Below are positions 2,175 to 25,807 of a stretch of 32,000 bases of DNA, one piece after another. This DNA comes from Candidatus Omnitrophota bacterium (GTDB taxonomy: Bacteria; Omnitrophota; Gorgyraeia; Zapsychrales; JANLHA01): assembly GCA_963662715.1 (NCBI GenBank), contig OY759724.1:2340001-2372000 (forward strand), written 5' to 3'. Each line of letters starts with the position of its first letter. The stretch's first letter is position 1. The notes under the pieces were generated by a model. That model saw only the letters and a list, made by a program, of their open reading frames with translations. It made no database searches and had not been told where the DNA came from. The translations under genes and the position numbers were made by a program.

Positions 2175-2204
2175 TGGGGGGAAATCTGTCCCCCATATTT
2201 TTTG
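2175..2204 (+). terminator. rho-independent terminator candidate
   Basis: A G-rich/C-rich stem (tgggggg ... ccccca) with an 8-nt loop is followed by tattttttg. It lies downstream of the stop at 2134. Confidence 0.6.
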
Positions 2205-2246
2205 ATTGGATATCCCAACCTTTGGCTCCCTTATTAAGGTATCATT

Positions 2247-4688: not shown

Positions 4689-4693
4689 GAAAC

Positions 4694-6918: not shown

Positions 6919-7887
6919 ATGATTGTCGTAACCGGTGGCGCCGGTTTTATAGGCAGTTGCATTGTGTCGCAGCTGAATGCCTTAGGGCGGGAAGATCTGC
7001 TGATCGTCGATCACCTCGAGACCGGCTCAGAGAAAGCCAGGAACCTGGAGAATAAACTTTATGCGGATTATTTTGATAAAAGCGATTTCCTGGAATGCAT
7101 CCTGAACGATCAGCTGCAAGAGGATGTCGAATGTGTTATTCACATGGGAGCCTGCAGCTCAACAACACTGACGGATGAGGAGTATTATCGTAAGAATAAT
7201 TACGAATATTCCTGCCACCTGGCCCAATGGACACTGGCGCAAAACGCAAGATTTATTTACGCAAGCTCGGCTGCGACCTATGGAGACGGGGAAAAAGGCT
7301 ACAGTGACCTGGATGACATGACGCGGCGATTGAAACCCTTGAATTATTACGGGGAATCCAAGCATCATTTTGACTTGTGGGTGCTGGATCACGGGTTAGA
7401 AAAGAAATGTGTCGGGTTGAAATTCTTCAATGTTTTTGGCCCGAACGAGGCCCATAAGGGGGACATGCGCAGTGTTATCTCCAAAGCTTACCAGCGTGTC
7501 GTCCAGGAGGGGAAGATCAGCCTGTTTAAGTCTTATAGGGCGGAATACGCCGACGGGGAGCAAAAGAGAGATTTCATTTATGTCAAGGATGTCGTTGATG
7601 TTGTTTTGTTTTTTTTCGGCCATCCTGATATTAACGGTATTTACAATGTCGGGACGGGGCAGGCAAGGAGCTGGAATGATCTGGCCCGGGCTCTTTTTGA
7701 AGCGGTGGGGAGGGACCCTGTTATTGAATTTATGGAAATGCCCGAACATCTTCGGCCCCGGTATCAGTATTTTACGCAAGCAGATGTCGCGAAGCTGCGG
7801 CAGAGCGGGTATGTAAAACCTTTTACGGCTTTGGAAGATGCCGTTAAGGATTATGCCCAGTATCTCGCTTCAGGGCGTATCCTGTAA
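6919..7887 (+). CDS. hldD: ADP-L-glycero-D-manno-heptose 6-epimerase
   Basis: The product aligns end to end by eye with E. coli HldD/RfaD. Shared segments include MIVVTGGAGFIGS, ACSSTT, YASSAATYG, NYYGESK, FFNVFGPNE.HKG.M.SV, KRDFIYVKDV and YQYFTQAD. Confidence 0.92.
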   Translation: MIVVTGGAGFIGSCIVSQLNALGREDLLIVDHLETGSEKARNLENKLYADYFDKSDFLECILNDQLQEDVECVIHMGACSSTTLTDEEYYRKNNYEYSCHLAQWTLAQNARFIYASSAATYGDGEKGYSDLDDMTRRLKPLNYYGESKHHFDLWVLDHGLEKKCVGLKFFNVFGPNEAHKGDMRSVISKAYQRVVQEGKISLFKSYRAEYADGEQKRDFIYVKDVVDVVLFFFGHPDINGIYNVGTGQARSWNDLARALFEAVGRDPVIEFMEMPEHLRPRYQYFTQADVAKLRQSGYVKPFTALEDAVKDYAQYLASGRIL

Positions 7888-7903
7888 ACTCTTCAGGGAA
7901 ATT

Positions 7904-9073
7904 ATGGATATGATATTGTTCATCCTCATCGGAGTCATCGTGAGCCTTTTTCTTCTTGGCTTGGTCCTTGTCTGGAAGGGGACCCAAGAAGCGCCGGATC
8001 CAAAGGATATCGTGCCCAGGGAGGAATTCAGTTCCGTTCAAAAAGAATTAGATGCGGCGAAATCAGAAGAGGTCCATTTGAAACAGCAGCTGGATGCCCT
8101 TGCCGTTGATCTGCATCAGGCCCAGGAGAAGGTTCAAGAGTCCCAGGAACTTGAAGGAATGCTGAATTCTCTGCAGCAGCATGAGGAAGAAAATCAGGAA
8201 ACAATTTACCGGCTGGAAAAAAACTTTAATTTCTTAAGACAGAAAGCAGATCAACAGGCCAGAGCGGCTAAGGAGATCATTGAACTTATCCAGTCAGAAA
8301 AGGAAGCGTTGCGTCATGAAATGGATGATGTCCGCTCCAAGGTGGATGAAGAGGAGTTCTTGTCTGTTAAACGGGAAAATCAGCAGTTGCATTCGGACGT
8401 TAATAAATTTTTGGATGAGGTGAAGGATTTTGAACGCAGATTGCATGATATGCAGGATGAATATGAAACCCGGATTTCTCACAGTGACGGGGAGTTGCTG
8501 CGCCATCAGCAGCAAACCGACCGGTTAAAAACAGGTTTGCTGCTGATCATTCAAAAGGTCCGGGACGCCCAACAGCAAATGCTCACGACCCGGCAAGCTT
8601 ATGACCTGAAATATCAGCAAGTCCTGCGTGAGAAAGAAAGCCTGGACACTCAGGCCCGGGAAAAGATGCTGCATCTGCAGGAACAGAGTGACGTTTATCA
8701 GAAACAGATTCATGAAAATAATGAGACGATTCTGGCCTTGGAAAGAAGTCTGCTGGCAAGTCAGGAAAAGATTGACCAGTCGCACACCCTTATCAGCCAG
8801 TTGCAGGTCCAGCTAAAGACAGAGCAGGATATGGTGACGGCAGCGCTGCCGAAAGACCTGGAGGAAGACAGGAGGCTCCGGGACGAAAGAGAGAAGTTGT
8901 TGAATGAGAAAGCCGATTTGGAGAGGAAGCTGCGGGAGATGCGGGAGCTGAACGAGTTTTTGCAGAAAAAAGAAAAAATTCTTCAGCGGGAACTCACCAA
9001 AAGCCGGACAGAAGCTTTGGGGTTCCGCAGGATGTGCGATAGTTATAAGACGAAGATTGAAAATAATCATTAA
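7904..9073 (+). CDS. membrane-anchored coiled-coil protein (N-terminal TM helix, long Q/E/K/L-rich helical region)
   Basis: The ATG at 7904 gives MDMILFILIGVIVSLFLLGLVLVW, followed by about 360 aa of heptad-like Q/E/L/K-rich sequence. The upstream start at 7838 would overlap the hldD 3' end by 50 nt. I recognise no family. Confidence 0.65.
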   Translation: MDMILFILIGVIVSLFLLGLVLVWKGTQEAPDPKDIVPREEFSSVQKELDAAKSEEVHLKQQLDALAVDLHQAQEKVQESQELEGMLNSLQQHEEENQETIYRLEKNFNFLRQKADQQARAAKEIIELIQSEKEALRHEMDDVRSKVDEEEFLSVKRENQQLHSDVNKFLDEVKDFERRLHDMQDEYETRISHSDGELLRHQQQTDRLKTGLLLIIQKVRDAQQQMLTTRQAYDLKYQQVLREKESLDTQAREKMLHLQEQSDVYQKQIHENNETILALERSLLASQEKIDQSHTLISQLQVQLKTEQDMVTAALPKDLEEDRRLRDEREKLLNEKADLERKLREMRELNEFLQKKEKILQRELTKSRTEALGFRRMCDSYKTKIENNH

Positions 9074-10099: not shown

Positions 10100-10552
10100 A
10101 TGAAAATTATGCGTTGGGTAGGGAAATATGTTGTGCTGGTGGTGTTGTTGAGCGGATGCTCTTTTGTCCAGGAGTGCGGGAAAACCCTGTGGGGGTCTTC
10201 TACGCGTGCTTTGGAAAAAGCCCGGGACCAGGCCCTTGCACAGAGATTCCGCTGCTCACTGGAAGATTGCTATGAAACAGCTTTGGAATTAACGGGCTCA
10301 AGCGAGGATTTTGGTCCTGAGCAGGTGACCTTTCAGTTGTTTTTAGAAAGAAGACGGGAGAATTTTTTTGTTGTGATGGGGATCCCGGGCAGCGTTGATA
10401 CAACGGAGGCCGGGGTGTTTTTTGTCCCTGTCAATGATTCTGAAGTCCGGGTGGAGGTCTCTTCTTTAAGTTCCAACGCCAAGGCCCGTGTGGCCGAAGC
10501 CGTTTTTGCCTATTTATCTGAGCGTTTCAAGACTGTTCCCGCATTTCAATAA
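10100..10552 (+). CDS. hypothetical lipoprotein
   Basis: The N-terminus MKIMRWVGKYVVLVVLLSGCSF is a signal peptide with an L-S-G-C lipobox. Confidence 0.6.
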   Translation: MKIMRWVGKYVVLVVLLSGCSFVQECGKTLWGSSTRALEKARDQALAQRFRCSLEDCYETALELTGSSEDFGPEQVTFQLFLERRRENFFVVMGIPGSVDTTEAGVFFVPVNDSEVRVEVSSLSSNAKARVAEAVFAYLSERFKTVPAFQ

Positions 10553-10644
10553 GAGTTATCCCCGAGGAAGACGGCAGGAAATGTCGTCTTCACGCGTGAC
10601 GCCATTTGGAAGCGGTTAATCATGTCCTCAGCATCCCTTGAACT

Positions 10645-11163
10645 ATGATTGAGAACGAATTGTTATTCCTGGGGCTTCTCATGGGGGGCCCCAAACACGG
10701 GTATGAAATTAAGCGAATTATTGAGGAGGAACTGTACCCTCTGATTGGTTTGGATGTTAAATCGATCTATTATCCGCTTAAAAAAATGGAACAGCTGAAT
10801 TTATTAAAGAAAGATATCGGACGGGAAGGCCGCTGGCCGGAAAAATACGTTTACAAGATAACCCCGAAAGGGAAGAAGATATTCCACCATCTGATTACCG
10901 AAAGTTTTTTACTGATTGAGCGCCCGTATTTTAATATAGATTTATCTCTTTATTTTATTCAGTATGTTGACAAAAAGATTGCCAAAAGAAAACTGAAAGC
11001 GAGAATTTTTTTCCTGAAACGCATAAAAAGAGAGCTGGAGAAGCTGATTCAGAGAAAAGCCAGCCAGTTGTCTCCGCATCTTGATATTATCCTTGAGCAT
11101 GATCTGGACCTTGTTGACGCGGAAATCAAATCCTTTAAAAGGCTCATTGATTCTCTGCAATAG
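10645..11163 (+). CDS. PadR-family transcriptional regulator
   Basis: The product has a PadR-type wHTH (GPKHGYEIKRIIEEEL ... SIYYPLKKMEQLNLLKK ... YKITPKGKK) followed by a helical C-terminal domain. Confidence 0.8.
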   Translation: MIENELLFLGLLMGGPKHGYEIKRIIEEELYPLIGLDVKSIYYPLKKMEQLNLLKKDIGREGRWPEKYVYKITPKGKKIFHHLITESFLLIERPYFNIDLSLYFIQYVDKKIAKRKLKARIFFLKRIKRELEKLIQRKASQLSPHLDIILEHDLDLVDAEIKSFKRLIDSLQ

Positions 11164-11166
11164 TGC

Positions 11167-11194
11167 TTGACAAATCTCCTTCTTGTATTAAAAT
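11167..11194 (+). promoter_or_regulatory. sigma70-like promoter (TTGACA-16 nt-TAAAAT) upstream of the acyl-CoA ligase gene
   Basis: TTGACA is at 11167-11172 and TAAAAT at 11189-11194, with a 16-nt spacer. The -35 begins 3 nt after the padR stop codon. Confidence 0.6.
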
Positions 11195-11317
11195 CTAACT
11201 AATAAAATTTTACTATTTCCTCAGAAGTCTAACTTCTGTTAAATAAAGCAGATACGGCCAAATACGGCAAAAAATCAAGAAAGAAACCCCTCCCAGCTCA
11301 TATGAAGGTGATTTGTA

Positions 11318-12856
11318 ATGAACGTCTACCATTTGCTCAAAGAAAAGGCTGACACTTACAGCGGGAAACCGGCTTTAATTTTTAAGGATCAGGAAATATC
11401 ATTTTCAGATTTAAGGGGACAGGTCATCCGCCTGGCATCCGGCTTAAAGAAGTTAGGCGTCGGGAAATCAGATAAAGTGGCTGTCTTTCTTCCGAATTGT
11501 CCCGAATATGTTGTCTGTTACCTGGCCTGTTTTCACCTCGGAGCCGTCGTCGTTCCTCTGGATTATATGCTAAAGGACGATGAGCTGGTCTCCTGCTTAT
11601 CTCATTCGGAAACAAAAGCGCTGTTCGCTATGCCGAAAACAGACATTTCTTTGCCGGATATCAAGTCAAAAGTCCCTTCTTTACAGCATGTCATTCTTTT
11701 TCCGGGCCAAACAGAGGCGGGAGACCGGGAGGTTCTTTGGCCGAATTTATTGGAAGGGGGGGGGGATGATTTGCCGGAGGTTCTCATCGAGGATTCGGAC
11801 CCCGCCCTTATCATGTACACATCCGGCACCACGGGGCGGCCTAAAGGGATTTTACTTAATTATAAACATTTGGAAGGCTCTCCTAAAGCCATGGAATTTT
11901 TTGTCGATTTAAACGACAGGGATATCAAGCTGGCGGCCATTCCTTTCAGCCATATCGGCGGATTCATTTATATACAGAATTCTCTTATCTTCGGAATAAC
12001 ACTTGTTATTATGGACCGTTTTAATCCCTATGAGTTCTTGAGAAATATTCAGCGTTACAAGGTCACATGTTTTCACATTGTCCCGGCCATGTATACAGCC
12101 TTGTTGACATTGAAACAAATAGATAAATTCGATCTGTCCTCTTTGCGGTGGGTCGTTGTTTTCGGGGCGCCCAGCACCCCGGAGATTATGGCGCGTTTCC
12201 AGAAATACTGCCCGAATGCAAAATTGTTGAATGGCTGGGGCATGACGGAAACATGTCCGCCGAACACCGTGACGCCTCTGGGGAGCAGCAATATTGCCAG
12301 TGTGGGGAAACCCTCGCCCGTTTCTGAAATGAAATTGATCGATGATGACGGGCAGGACGTCCCCTGCGGCCAGATCGGTGAGATTGTCATTCGCGGCTGG
12401 GTTGTTATGGACGAGTATTATAAAGACCCGGACCTGACGGCCCAGACGAAAAAGAACGGCTGGCTTTATACCGGGGATCTCGGCCGTTTTGACGAAGAGG
12501 GATATTTATATATCGTTGGCCGTAAGAAAGAAATGATAAAAGTCGGAGGACAGATTGTTTACGCTCCGGAAGTGGAAGCCGCTTTTCATAAGCATGAAGC
12601 TGTCGAGGAGACCGCGGTTATCGGTGTTTCGGATGCTTTAAGGGGCGAAGCGGTGAAAGCTTTTGTCGTATTGAAGGAGGGAATGGATATTTCGATCGAA
12701 GACCTCAGATATTTTGCCCGCCAGCATTTGGCTCATTTTAAAGTGCCTTCCGAAATTGAACTGAAGGATGTCCTGCCAAAAAACCGGATTGGAAAAATTG
12801 ATAAGGAAACATTAAGGAAAAATCACGCCGGAAGTGCGGCGCAAGATGGAAGATGA
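11318..12856 (+). CDS. AMP-dependent synthetase/ligase (acyl-CoA or acyl-ACP ligase, ANL superfamily)
   Basis: The AMP-binding motif YTSGTTGRPKG is at nt 11816-11848. Also present are GWGMTE, YTGDLGRFDEEGYLYIVGRKKEMIK and the C-terminal PKNRIGKI lysine motif. An AAGGTGAT RBS lies upstream. Confidence 0.9.
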   Translation: MNVYHLLKEKADTYSGKPALIFKDQEISFSDLRGQVIRLASGLKKLGVGKSDKVAVFLPNCPEYVVCYLACFHLGAVVVPLDYMLKDDELVSCLSHSETKALFAMPKTDISLPDIKSKVPSLQHVILFPGQTEAGDREVLWPNLLEGGGDDLPEVLIEDSDPALIMYTSGTTGRPKGILLNYKHLEGSPKAMEFFVDLNDRDIKLAAIPFSHIGGFIYIQNSLIFGITLVIMDRFNPYEFLRNIQRYKVTCFHIVPAMYTALLTLKQIDKFDLSSLRWVVVFGAPSTPEIMARFQKYCPNAKLLNGWGMTETCPPNTVTPLGSSNIASVGKPSPVSEMKLIDDDGQDVPCGQIGEIVIRGWVVMDEYYKDPDLTAQTKKNGWLYTGDLGRFDEEGYLYIVGRKKEMIKVGGQIVYAPEVEAAFHKHEAVEETAVIGVSDALRGEAVKAFVVLKEGMDISIEDLRYFARQHLAHFKVPSEIELKDVLPKNRIGKIDKETLRKNHAGSAAQDGR

Positions 12857-12916
12857 TATCCTGGGATGTGTGTCATTAATTTTCATGAATATACCTGAAC
12901 AAGAAAGGAATGAATT

Positions 12917-13666
12917 ATGCAGACGATGGTTAAAGAAGTCCATATGACAGGTGAAGACCTGATGGAGATGGTTCAGCTGCGCCCGGAAGACATCGGGTCT
13001 TTTGCCATTGTCCCGGGCCCCAGGGAACGCATGGACGCCTTGGTGAAGAAACTGGAGAATCCTATCAAGAATTTTTCTTTTATGGAATATACCATGTTCA
13101 CGGGGGAATACCAGGGGACGAGGGTTACGACAATCAACGGGGGCCGTTTCTCCGCTGATACAGCCATCACCACGGAAATCCTCTGCAATGCCCGGGCCAA
13201 AACCATGATCCGTATCGGAAGCTGCGGGGCGTTGAGGGAAGATATTAAAATCGGCGATTTGGTTGTGGCCGAAAGCGCTGTCCGGGGGGACGGTGTTACT
13301 CCGTATTATGTCGATCATGGTTTTGAAACAAAGGCTGATTCGGCGTTGACTCAGCAAATCACAGCCGCGGCAGAACAGTCCGGGCTAACGGTCCGCAAAG
13401 GGGCCGTCTGGTCGACCGATGCTATTTTAAGAGAAACCAAAGAGCACGTCGGCAAAGCCGTTGAGCAGGGCGCGATAGCCGTGGATATGGTGACGTCGGT
13501 TTTCCTGACTTTGTGCCAGCTTTATAATGTCCCGGCTGCGGTCATCTTGGCGGTGAGCGATAATGTCATAACCGGGGAGATGGGATTTATGAATCCTGAT
13601 TATTATATGGCTGAAGGAGCGATGATCGGCATCGCTTTGAATCTGGTTAAGAACGCAAAAAAATAA
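12917..13666 (+). CDS. nucleoside phosphorylase, PNP/UDP family 1 (hexameric DeoD/Udp-like); candidate 5'-deoxyadenosine/MTA phosphorylase
   Basis: The sequence resembles the NP-I family (GGRFSADTAITTEIL, IRIGSCGAL, GDLVVAESAVR.DG). The substrate assignment rests only on operon context with MtnA-like and aldolase genes. Confidence 0.75.
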   Translation: MQTMVKEVHMTGEDLMEMVQLRPEDIGSFAIVPGPRERMDALVKKLENPIKNFSFMEYTMFTGEYQGTRVTTINGGRFSADTAITTEILCNARAKTMIRIGSCGALREDIKIGDLVVAESAVRGDGVTPYYVDHGFETKADSALTQQITAAAEQSGLTVRKGAVWSTDAILRETKEHVGKAVEQGAIAVDMVTSVFLTLCQLYNVPAAVILAVSDNVITGEMGFMNPDYYMAEGAMIGIALNLVKNAKK

Positions 13667-13670
13667 TCCT

Positions 13671-14639
13671 ATGACAGAAACCCCTTTATTCTGGCCGGCA
13701 AAAATGAAAGGGCGCGTCCTGAATGTCCTGGACGAAACCCTTATCCCGAAAAAGACTGTCTATATTAAAGTCCGGAATACGGCTCAGGCCGTTAAGGTGA
13801 TCCGTTCCATGAAAACCAGGGCTTTCGGACAGTTTCTTGTGGTATTAAATACATTTTTGCTGGAAATCCAGGCGGCAGACAAGGCCTCTGACAGGGTTTT
13901 CATGCAGAAAATGAACAAAACAGCCCAGGCGCTTAATGCCAGCCGCCCGACGTTCCCTTTTTCCGAAGTGACGGGCATCGTCGTGCACTGGGCTGAAGAA
14001 GCGCTAAGGCACCATGAAGATCCCCGCAAAATTGTCAAAAGAAATATTCATGGATATTTGCAGGGGATCAGGCAGCAGCGTCTGGACCGGGTGGCCAGGT
14101 TGGCGAAGTTAATGAAGAACGGAGACAGCATCCTGACACATTGCAATGTCTCGGGGGAACTGGCCATGGCCGCGGCTCTTTGCAGGAAACAAGGGAAAAA
14201 AATCCAGATTTTTGCTACCGAGACCCGTCCGTATCTGCAGGGGGCCAAGTTGACGTGCTGGGAATTGAAGCGGGTCGGCATTGATGTGACATTGATCGCC
14301 GATAATGCTGTGGCATCTGTGATGGCCGACTCTTTGGTGAACAAGGTGATCGTCGGATCGGACAGGAATTGTGCCAACGGCGATTTCGCGAACAAGATCG
14401 GCACCTATCAAATCGCCGTTTGTGCCCAAGAATTCAATATCCCTTTTTATGTCCTCACGCAGCCTTCCCGGGCCGTTAAGTCAGGCCGGGATATCCCGAT
14501 TGAAATACGGGACGAGAAAGAACTGCTTTGTTATGAAGGGAAGCGTTTTGTCCCGAGAGGGGCCAAAGGTTTTTATCCGGGATTCGATGTGGTTCCTTAT
14601 CAATATGTCACAAAAACGGTAGCGATCAATGTCAAATAA
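13671..14639 (+). CDS. eIF-2B alpha/beta/delta-family sugar-phosphate isomerase (MtnA-like 5-(methylthio/deoxy)ribose-1-phosphate isomerase)
   Basis: The product has ILTHCNVSG (the catalytic Cys context of MtnA) and VIVGSDRNCANGDFANKIGTYQIAVCAQEFNIPFYVL (the catalytic Asp context plus the NKIGT motif). It starts 4 nt after the upstream gene. Confidence 0.75.
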   Translation: MTETPLFWPAKMKGRVLNVLDETLIPKKTVYIKVRNTAQAVKVIRSMKTRAFGQFLVVLNTFLLEIQAADKASDRVFMQKMNKTAQALNASRPTFPFSEVTGIVVHWAEEALRHHEDPRKIVKRNIHGYLQGIRQQRLDRVARLAKLMKNGDSILTHCNVSGELAMAAALCRKQGKKIQIFATETRPYLQGAKLTCWELKRVGIDVTLIADNAVASVMADSLVNKVIVGSDRNCANGDFANKIGTYQIAVCAQEFNIPFYVLTQPSRAVKSGRDIPIEIRDEKELLCYEGKRFVPRGAKGFYPGFDVVPYQYVTKTVAINVK

Positions 14640-15114
14640 GAAACCGCTAAAGCACATTCTGGTTCACGGACAGGCGGCCCCGGCCGTTATGGACATTTTA
14701 AAGAAAAAGAGACAGAAGACTGTTGTCATCCCCGAGGGGCGCCCTCAGCTCGAGGCGGCGAAGGTCAACAGCCGTGAGTTGTTGAAACGGAACATGACTC
14801 CGCTTGTCATCGCGGACAATATGGCCGGTTTTATGTTTTATCGAAATATGATCAAAGAAGTCTGGCTGGCTTATCAGATCGGAGACGCGCACGGGGCGCT
14901 TTGTGATATCGGGGCCTTGATATATGCGGTCCTGGCCAAGAAACACCGAGTCCCGGTTCTGGCTTATCCCGCGGTCGAACAGAAAAGATTTATTGGAAAA
15001 CCCAAAGAGATCTGTTGCTTCTGCGGCCGGCGCGTGGCGCCTCCGGCTGTCAAGGGATATGTCCCTCTTCTGGAGTGGGTCCCGGGAAACTATATAGGAA
15101 AAATACATGAATAA
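14629..15114 (+). CDS. short eIF-2B/MtnA-like Rossmann-domain protein (half-size paralog)
   Basis: The 161-aa product resembles only the C-terminal nucleotide-fold half of MtnA/eIF2B (VVIPEGRPQLEAAKV..EL, TPLVIADNMAGFMF, VLAKKHRVPVLAYP). It overlaps the upstream stop by 11 nt and the downstream start by 8 nt, which indicates translational coupling. Confidence 0.55.
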   Translation: MSNKKPLKHILVHGQAAPAVMDILKKKRQKTVVIPEGRPQLEAAKVNSRELLKRNMTPLVIADNMAGFMFYRNMIKEVWLAYQIGDAHGALCDIGALIYAVLAKKHRVPVLAYPAVEQKRFIGKPKEICCFCGRRVAPPAVKGYVPLLEWVPGNYIGKIHE

Positions 15115-16135
15115 TGAACTTAAAGAGACAATCAAGAAAAATATGATCGCCGTCGGCCGGCTGCTTTGGGAGAAAGAATTGGCGACGGGCCTGAACGGGA
15201 ATATGAGTGTTAAGGTTGACGATCAGCATATCCTTCTGACGGGCAGTAAAACTTGCCTGGGGCTGCTGCACGATCAGGACATCCTGTTGATGAATTTGGA
15301 CGGACAGGTGATTGATGAGGGCATGATTTCCACGGAAGCGCTGCTGCATACGGATATTTATAAGAATGTCCCTTCCGTGAAATCCGTTCTGCATACGCAC
15401 ACGACGTTTGCAAACGCATATTTCTCGGAGCTGGATGTCCTGTCTCCGAGAAATTTTGAATCCAAACTGTATCTGGGAGAAGTCAGGTCTATTCCTCAGG
15501 ATACGCCGTCAGTGACGGATACCGCTCCGGTTCTCTCGGCCCTTAAAGAGAATAACGTCCTTGTCTTGAAAAATCATGGCATTGTTGCCGCCGGTGAAGA
15601 CCTTTTCGATTGTTTTCTTCTTGTCCAATGCCTTGAGGAGGCAGTGAAGGTGGAGTGTTTCAGCCGGTTGTTTAAGCCAAAGGCCCCTTTGAACAACACC
15701 GGTCTTTCTGCCGGATCAAAAAAAACGGAAGAACCCGGGGCGGCTGCTCCGGGGAAAAAATATAAATTGTTTTCTCAGGAGCAAATCGACCAGATCGTTC
15801 AGGTTGTCAACGCTGACAAACAGCTGAAAGATATGGGGGAAAAGACTCAGATGACCATGGAACTGGCCGTTAAATTGAACGAAACCGACCGGGTGTACAG
15901 TTTTCAGTTTGAAAACGGCCGGATTGTTCGGGTCGGCCATAATACGGACGCGGAATTTTTAATTTCGGCTTCGGCCAAAGTCTGGCTCGCCGTATTCAAC
16001 CGCCAAATAGATCCTTTTGTGGCAACAACGCAGAAAAAGATGCACCTGAAGGGCGATTATGCCCGGATTTCGAAATGGTATGCTCCCTGTAGCCGGATTT
16101 TCGAATTATGGCAGCAAGTTCCGGTTGAAGGATGA
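15107..16135 (+). CDS. class II aldolase/adducin-domain protein fused to a C-terminal SCP2-like domain
   Basis: The N-terminal ~190 aa carry class II aldolase motifs (GLNGNMSVK, LLTGSKT, STEALLHTDIY, SVLHTHTTFA zinc histidines, LKNHGIVAAGEDL). A Gly/Ala/Pro/Lys linker follows. The C-terminal ~120 aa look like an SCP2 sterol-carrier fold (AEFLISASAKVWLAVFNRQIDPFVATTQKKMHLKGD). Confidence 0.7.
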   Translation: MNNELKETIKKNMIAVGRLLWEKELATGLNGNMSVKVDDQHILLTGSKTCLGLLHDQDILLMNLDGQVIDEGMISTEALLHTDIYKNVPSVKSVLHTHTTFANAYFSELDVLSPRNFESKLYLGEVRSIPQDTPSVTDTAPVLSALKENNVLVLKNHGIVAAGEDLFDCFLLVQCLEEAVKVECFSRLFKPKAPLNNTGLSAGSKKTEEPGAAAPGKKYKLFSQEQIDQIVQVVNADKQLKDMGEKTQMTMELAVKLNETDRVYSFQFENGRIVRVGHNTDAEFLISASAKVWLAVFNRQIDPFVATTQKKMHLKGDYARISKWYAPCSRIFELWQQVPVEG

Positions 16136-16145
16136 GATTTGAGCT

Positions 16146-17633
16146 ATGGACAGATATGATTTATTCATTAACGGGACGTTAAGGCCGGCACAGGAAGACC
16201 GGTATTTTGAGGCCATGAACCCTTCCGCCGGAGAAGCGTTCGCACAGGTGGCAGATGCCTCCTGCGGGGACATGGCTGAAGCGATTGACGCCGCACGGCA
16301 GTGTTTTTTATCCATGGCCTGGGCCGGACTGACGATCAGGGAAAGAGGTCAGTTTTTATCGCGTGTCGCACAGCTCATCCGGGATAATGCCAAACTTTTG
16401 GCCGAATTGGAAAGTTCCGATACCGGCAAAACGATTAAGCAGACGACATTTATTGACGTCCCCACGTGTGCGGACACTTTTGAATATTTTGCCGGAGTGA
16501 GTGATCAGTTGAAAGGAACGATCAACCCTGTCCCGGCCCCTGTACGCAGCCTGACCGATAGAGAGCCTGTGGGTGTCGTCGCCGCCATTATCCCCTGGAA
16601 CTATCCTCTTATCATGTTCGCCTGGAAGGTGGCGCCTGCTTTGATCGCCGGGAATTCCGTTATTTTTAAGCCGTCCCGCCAGGCAAGCGTTTCCATTTCA
16701 AAACTCGCCCAAATTATCCGGCAGGCCGGCCTGCCGGACGGGGCGCTTAATGTTGTCACAAGCAGCCGGCATGAGGTGGTTCAGAAACTCATTGAAAGCC
16801 CGGAAGTTCATATGATCAGTTTTACCGGGGGGACGGAAACGGGCCGCGATGTCATGCGCCGCGCCGCACAGACGACAAAAAAATTAAATTTGGAACTCGG
16901 GGGGAAATCTCCCAACATCGTGTTCGCGGATTGTGATATCGACGCCGCTGTCGGGGGGACGCTGTCAGCCATTTTTATGAATCAGGGACAGATGTGTACC
17001 GCCGGATCCCGGTTGCTTTTGGAGGATGATATTTATGACGATTTTTTAAAAAGACTGGTTCAGAAGGTGCAGCAGTTTAAGATCGGCCATAGTATCAATT
17101 ACGATACGGATTTTGGCCCTCTTATTAGCGCGCAGCACCGGGAGCAGGTTTTGTCCTACGTCCGAAAAGGGGTAAACGAAGGCGCTACGCTTCTTTGCGG
17201 CGGCAAGATACCGGAAGATCTCCCTTCGGATATAGCGAAAGGATATTATTTGGAGCCTACGATCTTCACGGACGTTACTCCTGAGATGACGATTGCCCGG
17301 GAAGAAATATTCGGCCCGGTTCTGTCGGTCATGAGATTCTCCTCTCCGGAAGAAGCTCTGGAGCTCGCGAATGATACTCCTTACGGTCTGGCTGCCTGTG
17401 TTTGGACCAGGAGCATGGATAAAGCTCAGCAGGTTTCCAAACAGCTGCAGTGCGGAATCGTGTGGGTTAACACCTACGGCGGTTTTTACAACGAGGCTTC
17501 CTTCGGCGGTTACAAACAGAGCGGGTTTGGCCGTTCCCTGGGAACCGAGGGCCTTTTGGAATATACGCAGTCAAAACATATCTGTATTGACGCGACACCT
17601 GGAGGGCGTTCTCTTGTCTCGAGCTGGTTTTGA
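16146..17633 (+). CDS. NAD(P)+-dependent aldehyde dehydrogenase (non-acylating ALDH superfamily)
   Basis: Present are the ELGGKSP glutamate motif, the FMNQGQMCTAGSR catalytic cysteine motif, PWNYPL and EEIFGPV. The product is 495 aa. Confidence 0.92.
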   Translation: MDRYDLFINGTLRPAQEDRYFEAMNPSAGEAFAQVADASCGDMAEAIDAARQCFLSMAWAGLTIRERGQFLSRVAQLIRDNAKLLAELESSDTGKTIKQTTFIDVPTCADTFEYFAGVSDQLKGTINPVPAPVRSLTDREPVGVVAAIIPWNYPLIMFAWKVAPALIAGNSVIFKPSRQASVSISKLAQIIRQAGLPDGALNVVTSSRHEVVQKLIESPEVHMISFTGGTETGRDVMRRAAQTTKKLNLELGGKSPNIVFADCDIDAAVGGTLSAIFMNQGQMCTAGSRLLLEDDIYDDFLKRLVQKVQQFKIGHSINYDTDFGPLISAQHREQVLSYVRKGVNEGATLLCGGKIPEDLPSDIAKGYYLEPTIFTDVTPEMTIAREEIFGPVLSVMRFSSPEEALELANDTPYGLAACVWTRSMDKAQQVSKQLQCGIVWVNTYGGFYNEASFGGYKQSGFGRSLGTEGLLEYTQSKHICIDATPGGRSLVSSWF

Positions 17634-17770
17634 CTGCCGAGCCTCCGCAGCCTTTATGTCTTTATTGTAACGCGCGTTACCGGGTATCTTAAGAAATGCA
17701 AGACAGGGATGTGCAGGGTCTTTTTTAGTAAAGAAACCATAGAACATAATTTTTTTGAGAAAGGGATGGA

Positions 17771-19243
17771 ATGAAAGTTTTATTTGTTACGCCTCCGATG
17801 GGTTCCTGGGCTACCCACGGAGACCATAAAGCTCCTAATCAGTATTATGCCCAGGTTGCGGCCTATCTGCGGGACAAAGCCGTGGCCGATGTCCAGGTCC
17901 TGGATGCTAAGGCGTTGGATCTTTCTTATGATCAGATGATGGCTGAAATTGCGAAGAGCCAGCCCCGTTTATGTGTCTTTGGGGACCTGCTGCATTCTAC
18001 CGGAGGATTGTCTGTCATCTGGCATTTCCTGGAAACAGCCAGAAGAATTAAGGACATCCTGCCTGAGACCAAAATCCTTATGGGCGGTCTTTGGTTTTCC
18101 GCCTATGCCACCGAAACGCTGGAACAGAACCCCTGGGTGGACTTCATTGCCATGGGAGAGGGTGAGCTCACAATCACAGACCTGATCCTGGCATTGGAAA
18201 ACCAGAAGACGGACCTGTCGGATATCCCCGGCCTGGTCTCGCGGACGGCGGACGGAAAGATCGAGATGGGGCCGCACCGGGACTTGATCCCCAGCCTGGA
18301 TGATTTGCCGATGCCGGCGTATGACCTTTTCCCGATGGAAAAATATGTCGGCCACACATACTGGAAACCGTTTGCCGAACTCCTGACTTCCCGCGGCTGC
18401 CCCGGGGCATGCACCTTTTGTTATCAGTGGAGTCTCTACGATAAGCGCAACAGTCAAAAGGATTATATTTCCTGGCGGGGAAAATCCCATAGCCGGATTT
18501 TAGACGAGTTGGATTATCTTGAAAAAGAATACGGCGTCAAGGTTGTCGTCATACAGGATGATGCTTTTAACGTAGACAAGGATAATGTGCGGCGTTTTTG
18601 TGAGTCGAAAATTGAGCGGGGCAACAGAATTCAATGGGTTTGTTTAGGCCGCGCCGATGACTGGTTGGCCCACAAGGATATTTTACCCCTGATGAACAAA
18701 GCGGGTTTGTTTATGGGGCTGGTGGGCGTTGAAGTTGAGAGTGACGAGCAGCTGGCCAAACAGGGCAAGGGCGTAACGCTGCAGCAGATCAAGGATACTG
18801 TGCAGGCGTTGCGGGCGGCGAACATCGCCAGCGTCGGGACGGTGTTAATCGGGTTAGAGGATGATGATGAAGCGACCATCAAGGAAAGATTCCGGGTTGC
18901 CGATGATATTGATCCCGATATCATGGCTTTGGATTACGTGACGCCTGTGCCGGGTTCTTTATTGTGGAATAATGCGATTAAAAAAGGCTGGCTGACCCCC
19001 CGGGATATTCAGCTGCGGGAATGGGATTTTCATCACCCGGTTATCCCAACTCAATATCTTTCTGTTGCTGATGTCGGCCGGCTGGGGGCCTGGTGTATGC
19101 GCGAGTTTTATTCAAAGCCGGAGCGCATTCACCGGATTATGGACAGTGATTATGACATGCTTGTTAAATTGTGTGTGAAAGATTTTATGAGCAATATCGC
19201 CAAATTTGAAAAAGCTTCCGTTGGTGAAGGCACATATGTTTAA
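17771..19243 (+). CDS. B12-binding-domain radical SAM enzyme (class B rSAM)
   Basis: The N-terminal ~140 aa look like a cobalamin-binding Rossmann-like region. The CxxxCxxC cluster motif (SRGCPGACTFCY) is at nt 18398-18421. The overall 490-aa architecture is typical of class B rSAM proteins. Confidence 0.85.
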   Translation: MKVLFVTPPMGSWATHGDHKAPNQYYAQVAAYLRDKAVADVQVLDAKALDLSYDQMMAEIAKSQPRLCVFGDLLHSTGGLSVIWHFLETARRIKDILPETKILMGGLWFSAYATETLEQNPWVDFIAMGEGELTITDLILALENQKTDLSDIPGLVSRTADGKIEMGPHRDLIPSLDDLPMPAYDLFPMEKYVGHTYWKPFAELLTSRGCPGACTFCYQWSLYDKRNSQKDYISWRGKSHSRILDELDYLEKEYGVKVVVIQDDAFNVDKDNVRRFCESKIERGNRIQWVCLGRADDWLAHKDILPLMNKAGLFMGLVGVEVESDEQLAKQGKGVTLQQIKDTVQALRAANIASVGTVLIGLEDDDEATIKERFRVADDIDPDIMALDYVTPVPGSLLWNNAIKKGWLTPRDIQLREWDFHHPVIPTQYLSVADVGRLGAWCMREFYSKPERIHRIMDSDYDMLVKLCVKDFMSNIAKFEKASVGEGTYV

Positions 19244-19296
19244 TTTTAAAATGGCCCGGCGTTAGAATCCGTGGTCTGAGGACAGGACGGTGATCT

Positions 19297-19596
19297 ATGG
19301 TTGATGAACAGCTCCAGATGGAATGGGAGAAAAGTGCGTTAACAAAATATAAAAATATGATTCAAAGGATCCCCTTGTTTCACCGGGAAATTGCGGATCA
19401 GGTCGTTACGAAAAAAGCGACGCAGAATGCTCAGAAAAGAGGCTCGGAGATTGTTGAGGAATGTGATATCCTCAGGGCTTTTTTTTCGGAAGTTCCCATG
19501 ACATTTTACGGGCTTATGATCCGGCTCTTTGAAGAGGTTGGCTTTGATTATAATAAATATGATCCCAGCCATAATGGAAAGACGGAGACAACCTAG
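19297..19596 (+). CDS. small protein resembling the PCP_red domain (C-terminal domain of protochlorophyllide reductase subunit B)
   Basis: The segment MEWEKSALTKYKNMIQRIPLFHREIADQVVTKKATQNAQKRGSEIVE fits the W..A...L..IP.F.R.......E..A...G pattern of PF08369 as I recall it. This assignment needs an HMM check. Confidence 0.45.
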   Translation: MVDEQLQMEWEKSALTKYKNMIQRIPLFHREIADQVVTKKATQNAQKRGSEIVEECDILRAFFSEVPMTFYGLMIRLFEEVGFDYNKYDPSHNGKTETT

Positions 19597-19706
19597 CCTA
19601 GGGAGAAGTTCCCTGCTTCTGGAAGTTTTGTCCCCGGTGACGTAGCGTGAACCGTTTCCCCGCGTAGCGGCAGCATGTTATTCAGCAAAAAAATGAGGAA
19701 AGAGCC

Positions 19707-20177
19707 GTGGCCCAAAAATCAGAATTGCGAGTGAGTCATCATTTTGTTTTTATCGAAGTCCCCATCGGCCTTGTGACTTCGGAATCTTTATTGTGGGGAG
19801 AGGCCTCGTGGTGGCCGAAGCCTTGTCCTTGGCATACGCAGAAGCTGACAGAAGGGGACATTGCTATCGGGACGCAATATCATCATTCTCTAGGCGGAGG
19901 CCTGGCTCCGCGCTGGGTTTCGGAAATAACCCAGTATGAGCCGAGACGGGAAATCGAACGCACATTTAAAGGGGATTTCTTTGTCGGGTATGAAGTCATT
20001 CAGGTGGGGGAGAGAGCGAACGGGACACGGATTGATTATGAAATGCATTATCAGGTCAAAGGTTTGTATAAAAAGATATTGTGGGAAATCTATTACAGAA
20101 AGAAATATGAAGCTAAGCTTGAAATGATCCTGGCAACATTAAAAGAGTATGTCGTGAAGCAGTATTATAAGGATTAA
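19707..20177 (+). CDS. SRPBCC (START/Bet v1-like) superfamily protein
   Basis: The ORF has a GTG start with a GAGGAA RBS upstream. The size (156 aa) and the alternating beta-strand pattern with a long C-terminal helix are typical of SRPBCC proteins. The family call is tentative. Confidence 0.5.
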   Translation: MAQKSELRVSHHFVFIEVPIGLVTSESLLWGEASWWPKPCPWHTQKLTEGDIAIGTQYHHSLGGGLAPRWVSEITQYEPRREIERTFKGDFFVGYEVIQVGERANGTRIDYEMHYQVKGLYKKILWEIYYRKKYEAKLEMILATLKEYVVKQYYKD

Positions 20178-20200
20178 CCTTGTCTTCGGGAGAAAGTCAG

Positions 20201-21232
20201 ATGAAAATTGCTGTTATTGGAGCAGGGGCGATTGGTTCGGTTGTTGCGGGCTTCTTGACCAAAGCCGGGGCAGACGTTCTTTTGGTGGGGCGCCCGGAAC
20301 AGGTCTCGGCCATTCAAGAAAACGGCTTATGTATCAGAAAGCCTGACGGGGATGAAGCCGTCGGTGTCCGCGTCGCGGACAAACTGGACCGGACGTATGA
20401 TTTGGTTATTTTTACCGTGAAAAGCCAGGATATGGAGCAGGCTTATCAAGATAACGCGGATTTTCTGGAAGATAGCCTGGTGCTAACAACACAGAACGGG
20501 ATCCAGGGAGATAATCTTCTCAGCACTCATTTTGCTCCGGAAAGGATGTACAGCAGTATCGTCATGTTCGGGGCGACATACACTGTCCCGGGGGAGGTTG
20601 TCCTCAATTTCCCGGGGGATTGGATTATCGGAAAACCTTACACTGTCAATGATGCTAAGATCGAAGAAATAGCGTATGTTCTAAAGAGAGCTTTTCCTGT
20701 TGAGATATCGACAAATATTATGGGGATGAAGTGGCTGAAGCTTTTCGTGAATTTTAATAATTGTATCCCGGCGTGCATTGGTCAGCCCATGCAGGAAGCT
20801 TTTTCGGATATCGACTTGTGTAAGCTGAGTGTCCTGTTGTTGCGGGAGGGTCTTGATATCATCAACGCCGCCGGAATAGAATTGGTTTCGTTGCCGAATT
20901 TTCCTGTTGAGAGAATCCTGGGGCTTGCCCGTATGCCTGTCAACGAAGCGGCGGGTATCCTTCAGAAAACATTGACCGGTTTGAGCAAAGAGCCTGTTTA
21001 TGGCTCGATATTACAGAGTATTAAACGGGGCAAACCCAGTGAAATTGATTTTATTAACGGGGAAATCGACCAGGTGGCAGCCAGTATCCGAAGGAAGGCG
21101 CCTTTAAACAGGAAAATAGTCCGGTTCGTTCATCAGGTGGAGGGGACGGGGCAATTTTTTACCCCGGAAGAAATCAAGTCGGAATTCCCATTAACGGAAG
21201 GTCTTCTTGAAGAAACAGGGCAAGGCCGGTGA
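20201..21232 (+). CDS. ketopantoate reductase (ApbA/PanE) family NAD(P)H-dependent 2-oxoacid/ketone reductase
   Basis: MKIAVIGAGAIGSVVAGFL is the Rossmann motif. GMKWLKLFVNFNN and SILQSIKRGKPSEIDFINGEI correspond to the PanE signatures K..K...N and S.LQD...G..TEID.ING. The ATG at 20201 has a GGGAGAA RBS, whereas the ORF track starts at a TTG at 20180. Confidence 0.8.
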   Translation: MKIAVIGAGAIGSVVAGFLTKAGADVLLVGRPEQVSAIQENGLCIRKPDGDEAVGVRVADKLDRTYDLVIFTVKSQDMEQAYQDNADFLEDSLVLTTQNGIQGDNLLSTHFAPERMYSSIVMFGATYTVPGEVVLNFPGDWIIGKPYTVNDAKIEEIAYVLKRAFPVEISTNIMGMKWLKLFVNFNNCIPACIGQPMQEAFSDIDLCKLSVLLLREGLDIINAAGIELVSLPNFPVERILGLARMPVNEAAGILQKTLTGLSKEPVYGSILQSIKRGKPSEIDFINGEIDQVAASIRRKAPLNRKIVRFVHQVEGTGQFFTPEEIKSEFPLTEGLLEETGQGR

Positions 21233-21312
21233 ATTTGTCCCTGACACGGTGATGCCGTTTGTCGGGGCACGGCGTGTCGTGATTTTAAACAGTCTATAAG
21301 AGAGAGGGAAAA

Positions 21313-22572: not shown

Positions 22573-22610
22573 TCTGCCGTAGAGGATATACATAAACAAT
22601 TGGAGAGACA

Positions 22611-23843: not shown

Positions 23844-23906
23844 TTTTATCAATATAGGGCTGGGGACGAATCTGCCTTAAAAGCCCTGAATGAAGGAGGT
23901 ATCCCT

Positions 23907-24146
23907 GTGTGTGTTGAGGCAAAAGTGAAAGAAGTATTCCAGAAGGTGCTGGATGTCAGCCCTGACGAGATTAAGCCGGATGAGAGCCTGGCGGCCTCTT
24001 TGGGGGTGGATTCCACGGAGTTGGTCGAGATATCCGTCGGGATAAAAAAAGAACTGAATGTCCCTTTGGGCGACGGAGAGCTTAAAAAAACATTCACGTT
24101 TAATGAAATCGTTGAGATTGTGAAGTCAAAGGCTCCGGCGGACTGA
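23907..24146 (+). CDS. acyl carrier protein
   Basis: The 79-aa product has the LGVDSTELVE phosphopantetheine-attachment motif (Ser36 codon at nt 24012-24014). It has a GTG start with a GGAGG RBS 7 nt upstream. Confidence 0.85.
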   Translation: MCVEAKVKEVFQKVLDVSPDEIKPDESLAASLGVDSTELVEISVGIKKELNVPLGDGELKKTFTFNEIVEIVKSKAPAD

Positions 24147-24213
24147 AGAAGTATGTGAGTCGGGATATGCGCTTTTCGGGCGCGCTGGCGTTAACGCAAA
24201 ATGGAGTGCTTTC

Positions 24214-25068: not shown

Positions 25069-25241
25069 TGCAGGAACAAAAGATGCCTTTCGCTAAAAAA
25101 ACAAGGAAGGAAAGCGGGGCTGTGTCTCGTGTTTTTTTAGGCGGGCAGCAGTGGGGTTGAGCGTCGAAAGGGCGAGCCCCCTTTGACGGAAGGGGCTTGC
25201 CGGATAAGAAATTATAACTTATTTATAACGGGGAGGATATT

Positions 25242-25700: not shown

Positions 25701-25746
25701 AGCTCAAAAAGGAAAAATTTTTCTTACATTTTTCTCTTATTTTTGG

Positions 25747-25779
25747 TACTAATATTATTATGGTATAATAATATTAGTA
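25747..25779. promoter_or_regulatory. 33-bp perfect palindrome (15-bp arms, 3-nt spacer) overlapping an extended -10 element; candidate operator and promoter of the MFS gene
   Basis: tactaatattattat-ggt-ataataatattagta is a perfect inverted repeat. The TGgTATAAT extended -10 at 25761-25769 lies at its centre, 39 nt upstream of the ATG at 25808. Confidence 0.6.
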
Positions 25780-25807
25780 TAAAGAGTCTTTCTGTGGACT
25801 TTTTTTC

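Follow-up and report, generated by a model that had tools for sequence, protein, structure and literature searches.

A phosphorylase-isomerase-aldolase-dehydrogenase module embedded in a ketosynthase operon of Omnitrophota and its possible role in a nucleoside-to-acid pathway

Introduction

What is a series of nucleoside- and sugar-cleaving enzyme families doing inside an operon that also encodes a ketosynthase (KS) system, and where would its product go? The question is raised by a 32,000-nucleotide stretch of DNA from a Candidatus Omnitrophota bacterium (assembly GCA_963662715.1, contig OY759724.1, positions 2,340,001 to 2,372,000 of the forward strand), hereafter the window. Genes for a nucleoside phosphorylase-like protein, an MtnA-like isomerase, a class II aldolase and an aldehyde dehydrogenase (ALDH) follow one another there at 12917-17633 on the + strand, with an acyl ligase gene before them and a radical S-adenosylmethionine (SAM) gene after them. 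An initial annotation of this DNA had matched them with the dihydroxyacetone phosphate (DHAP) shunt and had suggested two roles: clearance of the 5'-deoxyadenosine left by the radical SAM enzyme, or supply of an unusual starter unit.

The chemistry itself is known and has precedents in the DHAP shunt and in the fluoroacetate route of Streptomyces cattleya (PMC6302742). What is new is its embedding in an operon that resembles a KS/chain-length factor (CLF) system, the conservation of that operon across the phylum Omnitrophota and the presence of three unusual protein variants. In a literature search we found no paper that assigns a function to the operon, and metagenome surveys merely report Omnitrophota biosynthetic gene clusters, 'ladderane-like' ones among them (PMC9902471). 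We tentatively read the module as a cluster-embedded nucleoside-to-acid pathway that follows the logic of the DHAP shunt and the fluoroacetate route and whose product may be activated by the ligase for the KS system, a reading that we regard as possible and somewhat short of probable.

Results

Gene content and catalytic residues of the module

Seven open reading frames (ORFs) occupy the + strand between 11318 and 19243, and the gaps between successive genes, from the ligase through the B12-binding radical SAM enzyme, are 60, 4, -11, -8, 10 and 137 nt. The ligase, phosphorylase, isomerase, aldolase, ALDH and radical SAM ORFs lie exactly where the initial annotation had placed them. It had overlooked a 161-aa gene between isomerase and aldolase as well as a C-terminal SCP2 domain on the aldolase, and the spacing of -11 to +10 nt that it gave for the module is correct only when the 161-aa gene is counted. 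Domains were assigned with Pfam and NCBIfam cut-offs and structures were compared through PDB matches, an AlphaFold2 model and Foldseek. The Pfam matches of the module (E-values: AMP-binding 1e-87, PNP_UDP_1 3e-38, IF-2B 3e-55, Aldolase_II 2e-35, Aldedh 4e-174) all score far above the cut-offs.

The phosphorylase-like protein (12917-13666, 249 aa, PNP_UDP_1) is a divergent NP-I protein of the DeoD/uridine phosphorylase (UP) type. Its nearest solved relatives are the PNP/adenosine phosphorylase of B. anthracis/B. cereus and uridine phosphorylases (E ~1e-23); the hexameric 5'-methylthioadenosine (MTA) phosphorylase (MTAP) of S. solfataricus and the MTA/S-adenosylhomocysteine nucleosidases are more distant. 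The only NCBIfam models that it matches are those for uridine phosphorylase, DeoD and MTAN, with no MtnP model among them, and it falls under every cut-off, reaching about one third of the score required (UP 102.6 vs 280, DeoD 99 vs 230). Comparison with MtnP, which the initial annotation had proposed as a check, therefore points away from that enzyme. No kinase gene was found in a Pfam/NCBIfam scan of the operon, which thus holds neither of the two entry routes of the DHAP shunt, an MtnP-type phosphorylase or MtnN together with MtnK. In a HMMER alignment to the B. cereus enzyme (2ac7), Arg24, Arg87 and Ser90 (phosphate) and Asp204 (base, purine N7) are kept; the first three follow E. coli DeoD numbering, in which we take them to be the phosphate ligands. 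The ribose-binding Glu of the 'EMET' motif is replaced by Val ('DMVT') in the whole family, and Arg43 is not conserved. Two tandem PNP-like paralogs occur in one lineage (locus L007, 6937-8479).

The MtnA-like aldose-1-phosphate/ketose-1-phosphate isomerase (13671-14639, 322 aa, IF-2B) matches B. subtilis MtnA (PDB 2yvk) at 8e-46 in an alignment that pairs the catalytic residues Cys160 and Asp240; its identity to the MtnA from the E. coli S88 DHAP-shunt locus is 30%. The motifs THCN (with the catalytic Cys), GSDR (with the Asp), ETRP and NKIGT are invariant across 55 members of the family. The protein passes the eIF-2B_rel model (201.5 vs 185.85) and fails both the MtnA equivalog (218 vs 279) and PRK05720 (242 vs 271), whereas the E. 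coli S88 enzyme passes all of these models, with scores of 411 and 463 for the latter two.

The 161-aa protein (14629-15114) is a half-size IF-2B paralog, whose Pfam match (4e-09) covers profile positions 109-213 of 280, that is, the C-terminal Rossmann-like domain only. When it is aligned to the MtnA-like protein, the catalytic Cys is replaced by Ile/Val and the catalytic Asp is lost. Its gene overlaps both neighbours (-11 and -8 nt) and is found in 37 of 38 assessable loci; it is absent from the deep-branching loci L095, L096 and L097. The paralog is most likely a non-catalytic (pseudo-enzyme) partner subunit of the isomerase.

In the aldolase (15107-16135, 342 aa, Aldolase_II + SCP2), a class II (Zn) aldolase domain at aa 1-190 is followed by an SCP2 lipid-binding domain at aa ~220-342. 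The GNxS motif and T45, S75, E77, H96, H98 and H157 correspond to the phosphate-binding and Zn/acid-base residues of FucA-type enzymes and do not vary in any of the 29 close relatives and 23 distant ones (28-46% identity) that were checked. No specific family claims the protein: it lies under every NCBIfam cut-off (best FucA_Meth, 102.6 vs 250), the MtnB models match residues 6-103 only (68-70 bits, where 137 and 226 would be needed), identity to E. coli S88 Ald2 is 22% over 157 aa (E = 5e-07), and DrdA (6btd) scores 41 bits. The top Foldseek matches of the model are YgbL, FucA and DrdA (TM to target 0.77-0.87), but these rank almost equally with AraD and decarboxylases, so that aldolase, decarboxylase and epimerase neighbours are not separated by fold and the structure does not help to tell an aldolase from a dehydratase either. 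The AlphaFold2 model has a mean pLDDT of 84 and shows a second domain (224-335) of alpha/beta type, with helices and a five-strand sheet and pLDDT mostly >83. The SCP2 profile is matched with 30.1 bits against a cut-off of 21.3 (E 6e-07) and the motif DPFVATTQKKMxLxGD is invariant. Profile, modelled fold and motif thus agree in marking this part of the protein as an SCP2 domain, for which lipid binding is predicted.

Orthology to genuine shunt enzymes was rejected on comparison with the mtnK-mtnA-ald2 locus of E. coli S88, in which the isomerase finds only a remote MtnA homolog and the aldolase no Ald2 ortholog. The likeness to the DHAP shunt extends to enzyme families, gene order and catalytic residues and stops short of orthology with any characterised shunt enzyme.

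The ALDH (16146-17633, 495 aa, Aldedh) is of the hydrolytic (non-acylating) NAD(P)+ type. Its PDB matches are ALDH1/2 and BADH at 1e-121, and its nearest NCBIfam families (BADH, aminobutyraldehyde dehydrogenase and phenylacetaldehyde dehydrogenase) are all under cut-off. The general-base Glu lies in ELGGKSP and the nucleophile Cys in QMCTAGSR, and both support the oxidation of an aldehyde to the acid that had been predicted for this protein. Since this hydrolytic pair would make the step from aldehyde to acid irreversible, it would also set the direction of the pathway.

The ANL-family adenylating acyl-CoA (or acyl-ACP, where ACP is acyl carrier protein) ligase (11318-12856, 512 aa, AMP-binding + AMP-binding_C) comes nearest to PRK06187 in NCBIfam (463 bits vs a cut-off of 476). 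Among PDB entries it matches Mtb FadD5 with 263 bits, feruloyl-CoA synthetase and 4CL with 229 and Acs (1pg3) with only 159. In its motif GWGMTET a Gly replaces the Trp that closes the acyl pocket of acetyl-CoA synthetase (Trp414 in S. enterica Acs). The FadD5/feruloyl/4CL-like character of the ligase and this Gly make acetate an unlikely substrate. The proposal that the ligase activates the acid thus holds insofar as an adenylating ligase is predicted to be co-transcribed with the module, but not for acetate. Taken together, the SCP2 fusion and the relatives of the ligase suggest an acid that is larger or more hydrophobic than acetate.

Conservation and rearrangement across Omnitrophota

The same gene order was recovered from 5 genome loci, about 45 metagenome loci and deep-branching relatives with different flanks and 41-45% aldolase identity, and the arrangement is far beyond chance. 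In the genome and metagenome scans the typical order is PadR, then ligase-PNP-MtnA-half-size paralog-aldolase/SCP2-ALDH, an optional radical SAM gene, a 99-aa protein (h99), an optional 156-aa protein (h156), and ApbA-KS-alpha-KS-beta-ACP-cyclase-SRPBCC-MFS-SDR. Upstream of the aldolase, all 38 assessable loci have the ligase and 37 each have PNP, MtnA and the half-size paralog. Downstream, where 30 loci could be assessed, ApbA is present in 30, ALDH in 29, the 99-aa protein in 29, KS-alpha in 28, the radical SAM gene in 25 and h156 in 12. Tailoring and export genes further downstream are likewise co-linear and conserved in related loci. In L009, each gene from ligase to cyclase overlaps the next or lies <25 nt from it.

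Deep divergence and rearrangement leave the core together. In L094 and L095, where aldolase identity is 41-45% and KS-alpha identity 67%, the operon is kept while the upstream neighbours (AccA, YkuD and a Mg-chelatase-like gene) are wholly different. The order in L096 is KS-alpha-KS-beta-radical SAM-ACP-...-Amidohydro_2-PNP-MtnA-aldolase-ALDH-x-ligase, with overlapping genes; apart from the one gene between ALDH and ligase, the stretch from PNP to ligase follows the route that we propose step by step. MtnA, aldolase and ALDH are contiguous, overlapping and beside the KS genes in both L096 and L097 despite the rearrangement. The constant core is the MtnA-like gene, then aldolase/SCP2, then ALDH, adjoining the KS/ACP genes.

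The aldolase-SCP2 fusion yielded 575 word-index matches, and the best 120 of these 575 are all 58-69% identical and belong to Omnitrophota where they are named. Clustering at 50% left ~25 full-length fusion representatives, down to 28% identity, and a profile built from the most distant fusions retrieved almost only more Omnitrophota. At 90% identity the family forms hundreds of clusters, and relatives with as little as about 41% identity still show the gene order. Relatives are labelled Omnitrophota or Omnitrophica apart from one 'Planctomycetales' and one 'Deltaproteobacteria' label, which are probably binning labels. The same profile search also returned a single stand-alone aldolase-SCP2 gene in an unrelated context (L093).

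The KS system, not the radical SAM enzyme, is the conserved partner

KS-alpha (21313-22572) and KS-beta (22611-23843) each have the N and C ketoacyl-synt domains, are both most similar to FabF and are followed by an ACP gene (23907-24146, 79 aa, PP-binding 2e-10, DS motif). KS-alpha passes the FabF subfamily model PRK07314 (450.8 bits vs 387) and narrowly misses the closely related equivalog TIGR03150 (466 vs 494). It keeps the Cys-His-His triad, with TGCTAG, NAHGSST and GHPLAG invariant, and together with the discrete ACP it provides the active KS and the carrier protein of a minimal type II polyketide synthase (PKS). KS-beta is a catalytically dead, CLF-like partner, in which Arg (ADRASS) takes the place of the nucleophile Cys and Asp and Asn take the places of the two His, invariantly in all relatives examined. 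Chain-length factors have Gln at the position of the active-site Cys, which serves decarboxylative self-priming. With Arg instead of this Gln, and with its similarity to FabF, the pair is KS/CLF-like and not a canonical aromatic type II PKS. The pair falls in a mainly non-actinobacterial KS/CLF clade that has so far only been catalogued, with 'Candidatus Omnitrophica' among its phyla (PMC10132072). In the deep-branching loci L094 (4539-5498) and L095 (4919-5893) an AccA gene lies immediately 5' of PadR, which is consistent with a pathway that consumes malonyl-CoA.

The B12-binding radical SAM enzyme (17771-19243, 490 aa, B12-binding + Radical_SAM) matches BchE with 204 bits and HpnJ with 153 bits, both far under cut-off. 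Membership in a ladderane cluster was rejected, as rSAM_ladder_B12 scores 74 bits against a cut-off of 360. The initial annotation had tied one of its two suggested roles to this enzyme, and that link does not survive the comparison. The module is kept in about ten loci where the gene is missing (L001-L003, L062, L063, L090 and L095) or has changed place (L054, L096 and L097), which identifies the invariant KS/dead-KS/ACP system as the conserved partner instead. The 99-aa protein encoded 3' of the radical SAM gene (h99, 19297-19596, with weak DUF2621 and PCP_red similarity) is kept where that gene is absent.

The remaining genes of the operon are also on the + strand. They encode the SRPBCC-like protein h156 (19707-20177, 156 aa, from Pfam/NCBIfam), an ApbA/PanE-family reductase (20180-21232) that passes the apbA_panE subfamily cut-off (160 vs 141), and a tailoring and export block (24214-29237) with Pfam matches to a PF04199 cyclase, an SRPBCC cyclase, MFS, SDR/ketoreductase (KR) and Amidohydro_2.

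Regulator, promoter and flanking genes

Directly 5' of the operon lies a gene for a PadR-family regulator (10645-11163, + strand, Pfam PadR 4e-10). Of the 38 loci that could be assessed, 31 have such a gene before the ligase, and so do L094 and L095 despite their different genes further upstream. In L007, a 343-aa pyruvate-kinase-domain gene sits just upstream of PadR (3621-4652). Between PadR and the ligase, a putative sigma-70-like promoter (11167-11194, + strand; TTGACA, 16 nt, TAAAAT; 11 of 12 matches) has the top score in a scan of 10400-25300, as a consensus match only. There is no convincing intergenic terminator before ~25.1 kb, that is, 3' of the cyclase gene.

An rRNA operon follows directly 3' of the cluster (16S 29405-30995, tRNA-Ile(GAT) 31217-31293, tRNA-Ala(TGC) 31306-31381, start of 23S 31696). 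At the other end of the window, 39-6235 holds glycogen/alpha-glucan genes (a branching-enzyme-like protein, GH57 + DUF3536 and the 4-alpha-glucanotransferase MalQ), which are syntenic in many, not all, related loci. Between these and the operon, a gene at 7838-9073 encodes a 411-aa protein with no firm Pfam match. The DNA around it is strongly A-rich (AT skew of +0.24 across 8001-9000), and the homolog of the protein in L009 has a weak crescentin-like coiled-coil match.

Several metagenomic relatives carry selfish or defence cassettes between operon genes (L016 4906-6341; L018 1087-2067 and 7264-9751; L086 11811-12617), with N6/N4 DNA methylase + HNH endonuclease, Fic/DOC and AbiEii toxin types. 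Band_7/SPFH (flotillin-like) genes lie inside the operon at two different positions (L030 2953-4092, L063 12639-13568). An enzyme that makes a special nucleoside was looked for among these inserted ORFs and not found; they belong to selfish elements (DNA methylase + HNH, Fic, AbiEii) or encode Band_7 proteins.

Discussion

Comparison with known pathways

The DHAP shunt, whether as MtnP/MtnA/Ald2 of R. rubrum, mtnK-mtnA-ald2 of extraintestinal pathogenic E. coli (ExPEC) or DrdK/DrdI/DrdA of B. thuringiensis, runs through the same chemical series: the base is removed to give a pentose-1-phosphate, an IF-2B isomerase follows, and a class II aldolase releases DHAP and an aldehyde. The Omnitrophota module differs in that its phosphorylase is a divergent hexameric NP-I type and not MtnP, with no MtnN or MtnK. 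It also has a half-size IF-2B paralog, an SCP2 fusion, a hydrolytic ALDH and a ligase as extras, and it is embedded in a KS/ACP operon rather than standing alone.

Among characterised routes, to our knowledge, the fluoroacetate pathway of S. cattleya alone has the complete series of a phosphorylase, an MtnA-type isomerase, a class II aldolase and an aldehyde dehydrogenase and ends in a C2 acid. It proceeds from 5'-fluoro-5'-deoxyadenosine (5'-FDA) through 5-fluoro-5-deoxyribose 1-phosphate (5-FDRP), 5-fluoro-5-deoxyribulose 1-phosphate (5-FDRulP) and fluoroacetaldehyde to fluoroacetate. All four families of this series, including the non-acylating ALDH, are present here in order. However, the phosphorylase of S. 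cattleya, FlB, is of the MTAP type, and the Omnitrophota operon has no threonine transaldolase and continues with a ligase and a KS system. A fluorinase/chlorinase/DUF62 domain was found neither in the + strand ORFs of >=95 aa in the window nor in the ORFs inserted in related operons.

In the nocuolin A (noc) cluster, methionine-salvage homologs have a fatty-acyl ligase, an ACP and a ketosynthase as neighbours and have been linked to the use of a SAM-derived unit (PMC9486936). Both clusters hold an enzyme of the class II aldolase family inside a biosynthetic setting, in noc the MtnB homolog NocA. NocA is a dehydratase followed by MtnD, however, whereas the partners in Omnitrophota are PNP, MtnA and ALDH, and the organism and KS type differ as well. 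No MtnC, MtnD, MtnW or MtnX (enolase-phosphatase, dioxygenase) is encoded in the window, which therefore lacks the MtnB dehydratase branch of methionine salvage.

Some type II PKS/KS-CLF systems are primed by non-acetate starters through a stand-alone ligase, such as enterocin (EncN) and aurachin (AuaE/AuaEII). The Omnitrophota operon likewise has KS-alpha as a discrete protein with an inactive KS-beta beside it, together with an ACP, a KR, cyclases of the SRPBCC and PF04199 families and an ANL ligase, but its KS pair is FabF-like and its KS-beta has Arg where CLFs have Gln. We know of no precedent for a nucleoside-derived starter. The non-carboxylating pentose bisphosphate pathway of haloarchaea also cleaves a nucleoside-derived pentulose-1-phosphate to DHAP and a C2 aldehyde with a class II aldolase. 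That route, however, requires a ribose-1-phosphate (R1P) kinase, a ribose-1,5-bisphosphate (R15P) isomerase and a ribulose-1,5-bisphosphate (RuBP) phosphatase and reduces glycolaldehyde, and the Omnitrophota aldolase scores only 45.6 bits against the NCBIfam model RU1PAldHalo (cut-off 300).

A nucleoside-to-acid pathway feeding the KS system

From the gene content, gene order, overlaps, conservation and retained catalytic residues we infer the substrates, the direction of the pathway, the connection from ALDH through ligase to KS and the role of SCP2 as follows. The genes at 12917-17633 would constitute a sugar-cleaving side pathway within a long PadR-headed operon that also codes for a FabF-like KS with its dead partner as well as for an ACP, cyclases, reductases and an exporter. 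The NP-I phosphorylase would free the base of a nucleoside, probably a purine nucleoside modified at C5', and leave a pentose-1-phosphate. The MtnA-like isomerase, in most lineages paired with its dead half-size paralog, would convert this to the pentulose-1-phosphate, which the Zn aldolase would cut into DHAP and an aldehyde carrying C4', C5' and the 5'-substituent. The SCP2 domain may hold a hydrophobic ligand or pass the product on. Oxidation by the hydrolytic ALDH would give the matching acid, which the FadD/4CL-type ligase would adenylate and transfer to CoA or ACP. The activated acid could then prime the KS/dead-KS pair, in which KS-beta has no self-priming Gln, or serve it as a building block, while DHAP and the base would go back to central metabolism. 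Candidates for the 5'-group are H, SCH3, OH or something larger.

Of the two roles suggested at the outset, supply of a starter or building block is the better supported and dedicated clearance of 5'-deoxyadenosine the less so. Supply is favoured because the module is linked to the KS genes and not to the radical SAM gene, because KS-beta lacks the Gln, because ALDH and ligase together build a thioester, and because L096 is co-linear from the phosphorylase to the ligase. The more specific proposal, that the C4'-C5' end of ribose together with its C5' substituent (H, SCH3, OH or a pre-installed hydrophobic group) is a dedicated primer or building block for the FabF-like KS/dead-KS system of Omnitrophota, must be considered doubtful.

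A number of observations weigh against such a pathway. None of the enzymes of the module reaches an equivalog cut-off, and no enzyme that would make a special 5'-modified nucleoside was found in the window (unannotated ORFs included) or among the ORFs inserted in related loci. Without the ribose-binding Glu and Arg43, the phosphorylase may not accept an ordinary ribonucleoside at all. The aldolase is equidistant from FucA, the YgbL/OtnC decarboxylase and MtnB, so that it could instead be a dehydratase or a decarboxylase. The nearest relatives of the ligase use medium-chain, long-chain or aromatic acids, and the C2 acid from 5'-deoxyadenosine would be acetate, which needs no special supply. In L097, a 267-aa class IV aminotransferase/ADC-lyase-like gene (8245-9048; Aminotran_4, 1e-50) fills the PNP slot directly 5' of the MtnA-like gene. 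Reduced clusters in four loci (L033, L046, L058 and L065) consist of PadR-ligase-aldolase/SCP2-h156-ApbA-MFS only, with intact genes and clean junctions at 12-48 nt, and have no PNP, MtnA, ALDH, radical SAM or KS/ACP/cyclase genes. Of the 84 aldolase residues that never vary in full clusters, at least 80 are kept in these loci, so the aldolase and ligase should have a role there that does without cluster-encoded PNP, MtnA, ALDH and KS. The SCP2 fusion and these reduced loci do not fit a simple linear pathway. In the full operon, the additional blocks flank the aldolase in pathway order, with supply on the 5' side and aldehyde processing on the 3' side, and a functional chain is still favoured there. 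The reduced cluster of L046 (4152-9397) occupies the same chromosomal position, beside the rRNA operon.

Alternative explanations

The module could serve salvage only, as an embedded DHAP shunt that clears 5'-deoxyadenosine from the B12-binding radical SAM enzyme or MTA from another SAM-consuming step and yields DHAP with acetate or methylthioacetate, the ligase and KS being unrelated to it. The chemistry would be that of the known shunt (PMC6302742), methionine-salvage homologs do occur in the nocuolin A cluster (PMC9486936), and a radical SAM gene accompanies the module in 25 of the 30 assessable loci. Its absence or relocation in about ten loci where the module stays has nevertheless led us to downgrade dedicated clearance for the neighbouring enzyme, and at least seven loci keep the module with no radical SAM gene in the cluster. 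Moreover, the enzymes are not MtnP or Ald2 orthologs, an SCP2 fusion would be useless for handling acetaldehyde or methylthioacetaldehyde, and a hydrolytic ALDH followed by an ATP-consuming ligase would be odd for mere disposal. For these reasons we consider salvage on its own unlikely.

The reduced clusters speak for a different division of the operon, in which ligase, aldolase-SCP2, h156, ApbA and MFS would form a separate unit whose substrate is a lipophilic acid or CoA ester, or which uses DHAP and a hydrophobic aldehyde in a condensation. PNP, the MtnA-like protein and ALDH would then be add-ons with another role and might even run in reverse, building a 5'-C-substituted nucleoside. The clean junctions and conserved aldolase residues of the four reduced loci, and the unchanged chromosomal position of the one in L046, agree with such a unit, and the class II aldolase fold also houses decarboxylases and dioxygenases with non-sugar substrates. 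On the other hand, the GNxS/Thr/Ser phosphate motif and the FucA-type Glu and three His are invariant, MtnA, aldolase and ALDH stay adjacent and overlapping even after rearrangement, and a hydrolytic ALDH suits the cleavage direction. A separate unit is in our view distinctly unlikely.

The invariant SCP2 fusion, the open-pocket FadD/4CL-like ligase, the changes in the phosphorylase's sugar pocket and the SRPBCC-like proteins would all be accounted for if adenosine were first coupled through its C5' to a hydrophobic acceptor, much as in adenosylhopane or aminofutalosine. Removal of the base, and of C1'-C3' in the form of DHAP, would then leave an acceptor longer by two carbons, which would go from aldehyde to acid to thioester for further extension by the KS. 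Weak matches of the phosphorylase to HpnG (58 bits) and of the radical SAM enzyme to HpnJ (153 bits) point the same way, but they lie far under cut-off. The cluster has no adenosylating radical SAM enzyme of the HpnH or MqnE type, its B12-binding radical SAM enzyme is dispensable in several lineages, and the route is without precedent. We give it only a slim chance.

Ordinary nucleoside catabolism that happens to be syntenic with KS genes in one lineage, taking ribose-1-phosphate through ribulose-1-phosphate to DHAP and glycolaldehyde and on to glycolate, would agree with a phosphorylase nearest to DeoD and UP enzymes and with the existence of the haloarchaeal ribulose-1-phosphate aldolase route (weak RU1PAldHalo match, 45.6 bits), but is highly improbable given a linkage that outlasts deep divergence, changes of flanks and rearranged gene order, overlaps with KS-cluster genes, enzymes highly divergent from housekeeping forms and a family essentially limited to Omnitrophota clusters.

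Significance for Omnitrophota

The operon is among the most conserved multi-gene features of a whole uncultivated phylum, and the literature lists such loci merely as 'type II PKS' or 'ladderane-like'. Nothing characterised corresponds to three of its protein variants, namely the fusion of aldolase and SCP2, the half-size IF-2B partner that has lost its catalytic residues and the NP-I phosphorylase that lacks the ribose-binding Glu. All parts are small soluble proteins, and the proposed pathway is therefore directly testable by in vitro reconstitution and heterologous expression. If the module does feed the ketosynthase, it would be the first case of DHAP-shunt or fluoroacetate-type chemistry recruited to provide a chain starter, and the engineering of polyketides or lipids could draw on it for building blocks from a new source. 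For Omnitrophota, it would mean a previously unknown way of initiating fatty-acid or polyketide chains, leading to a lipid or aromatic product made across the phylum.

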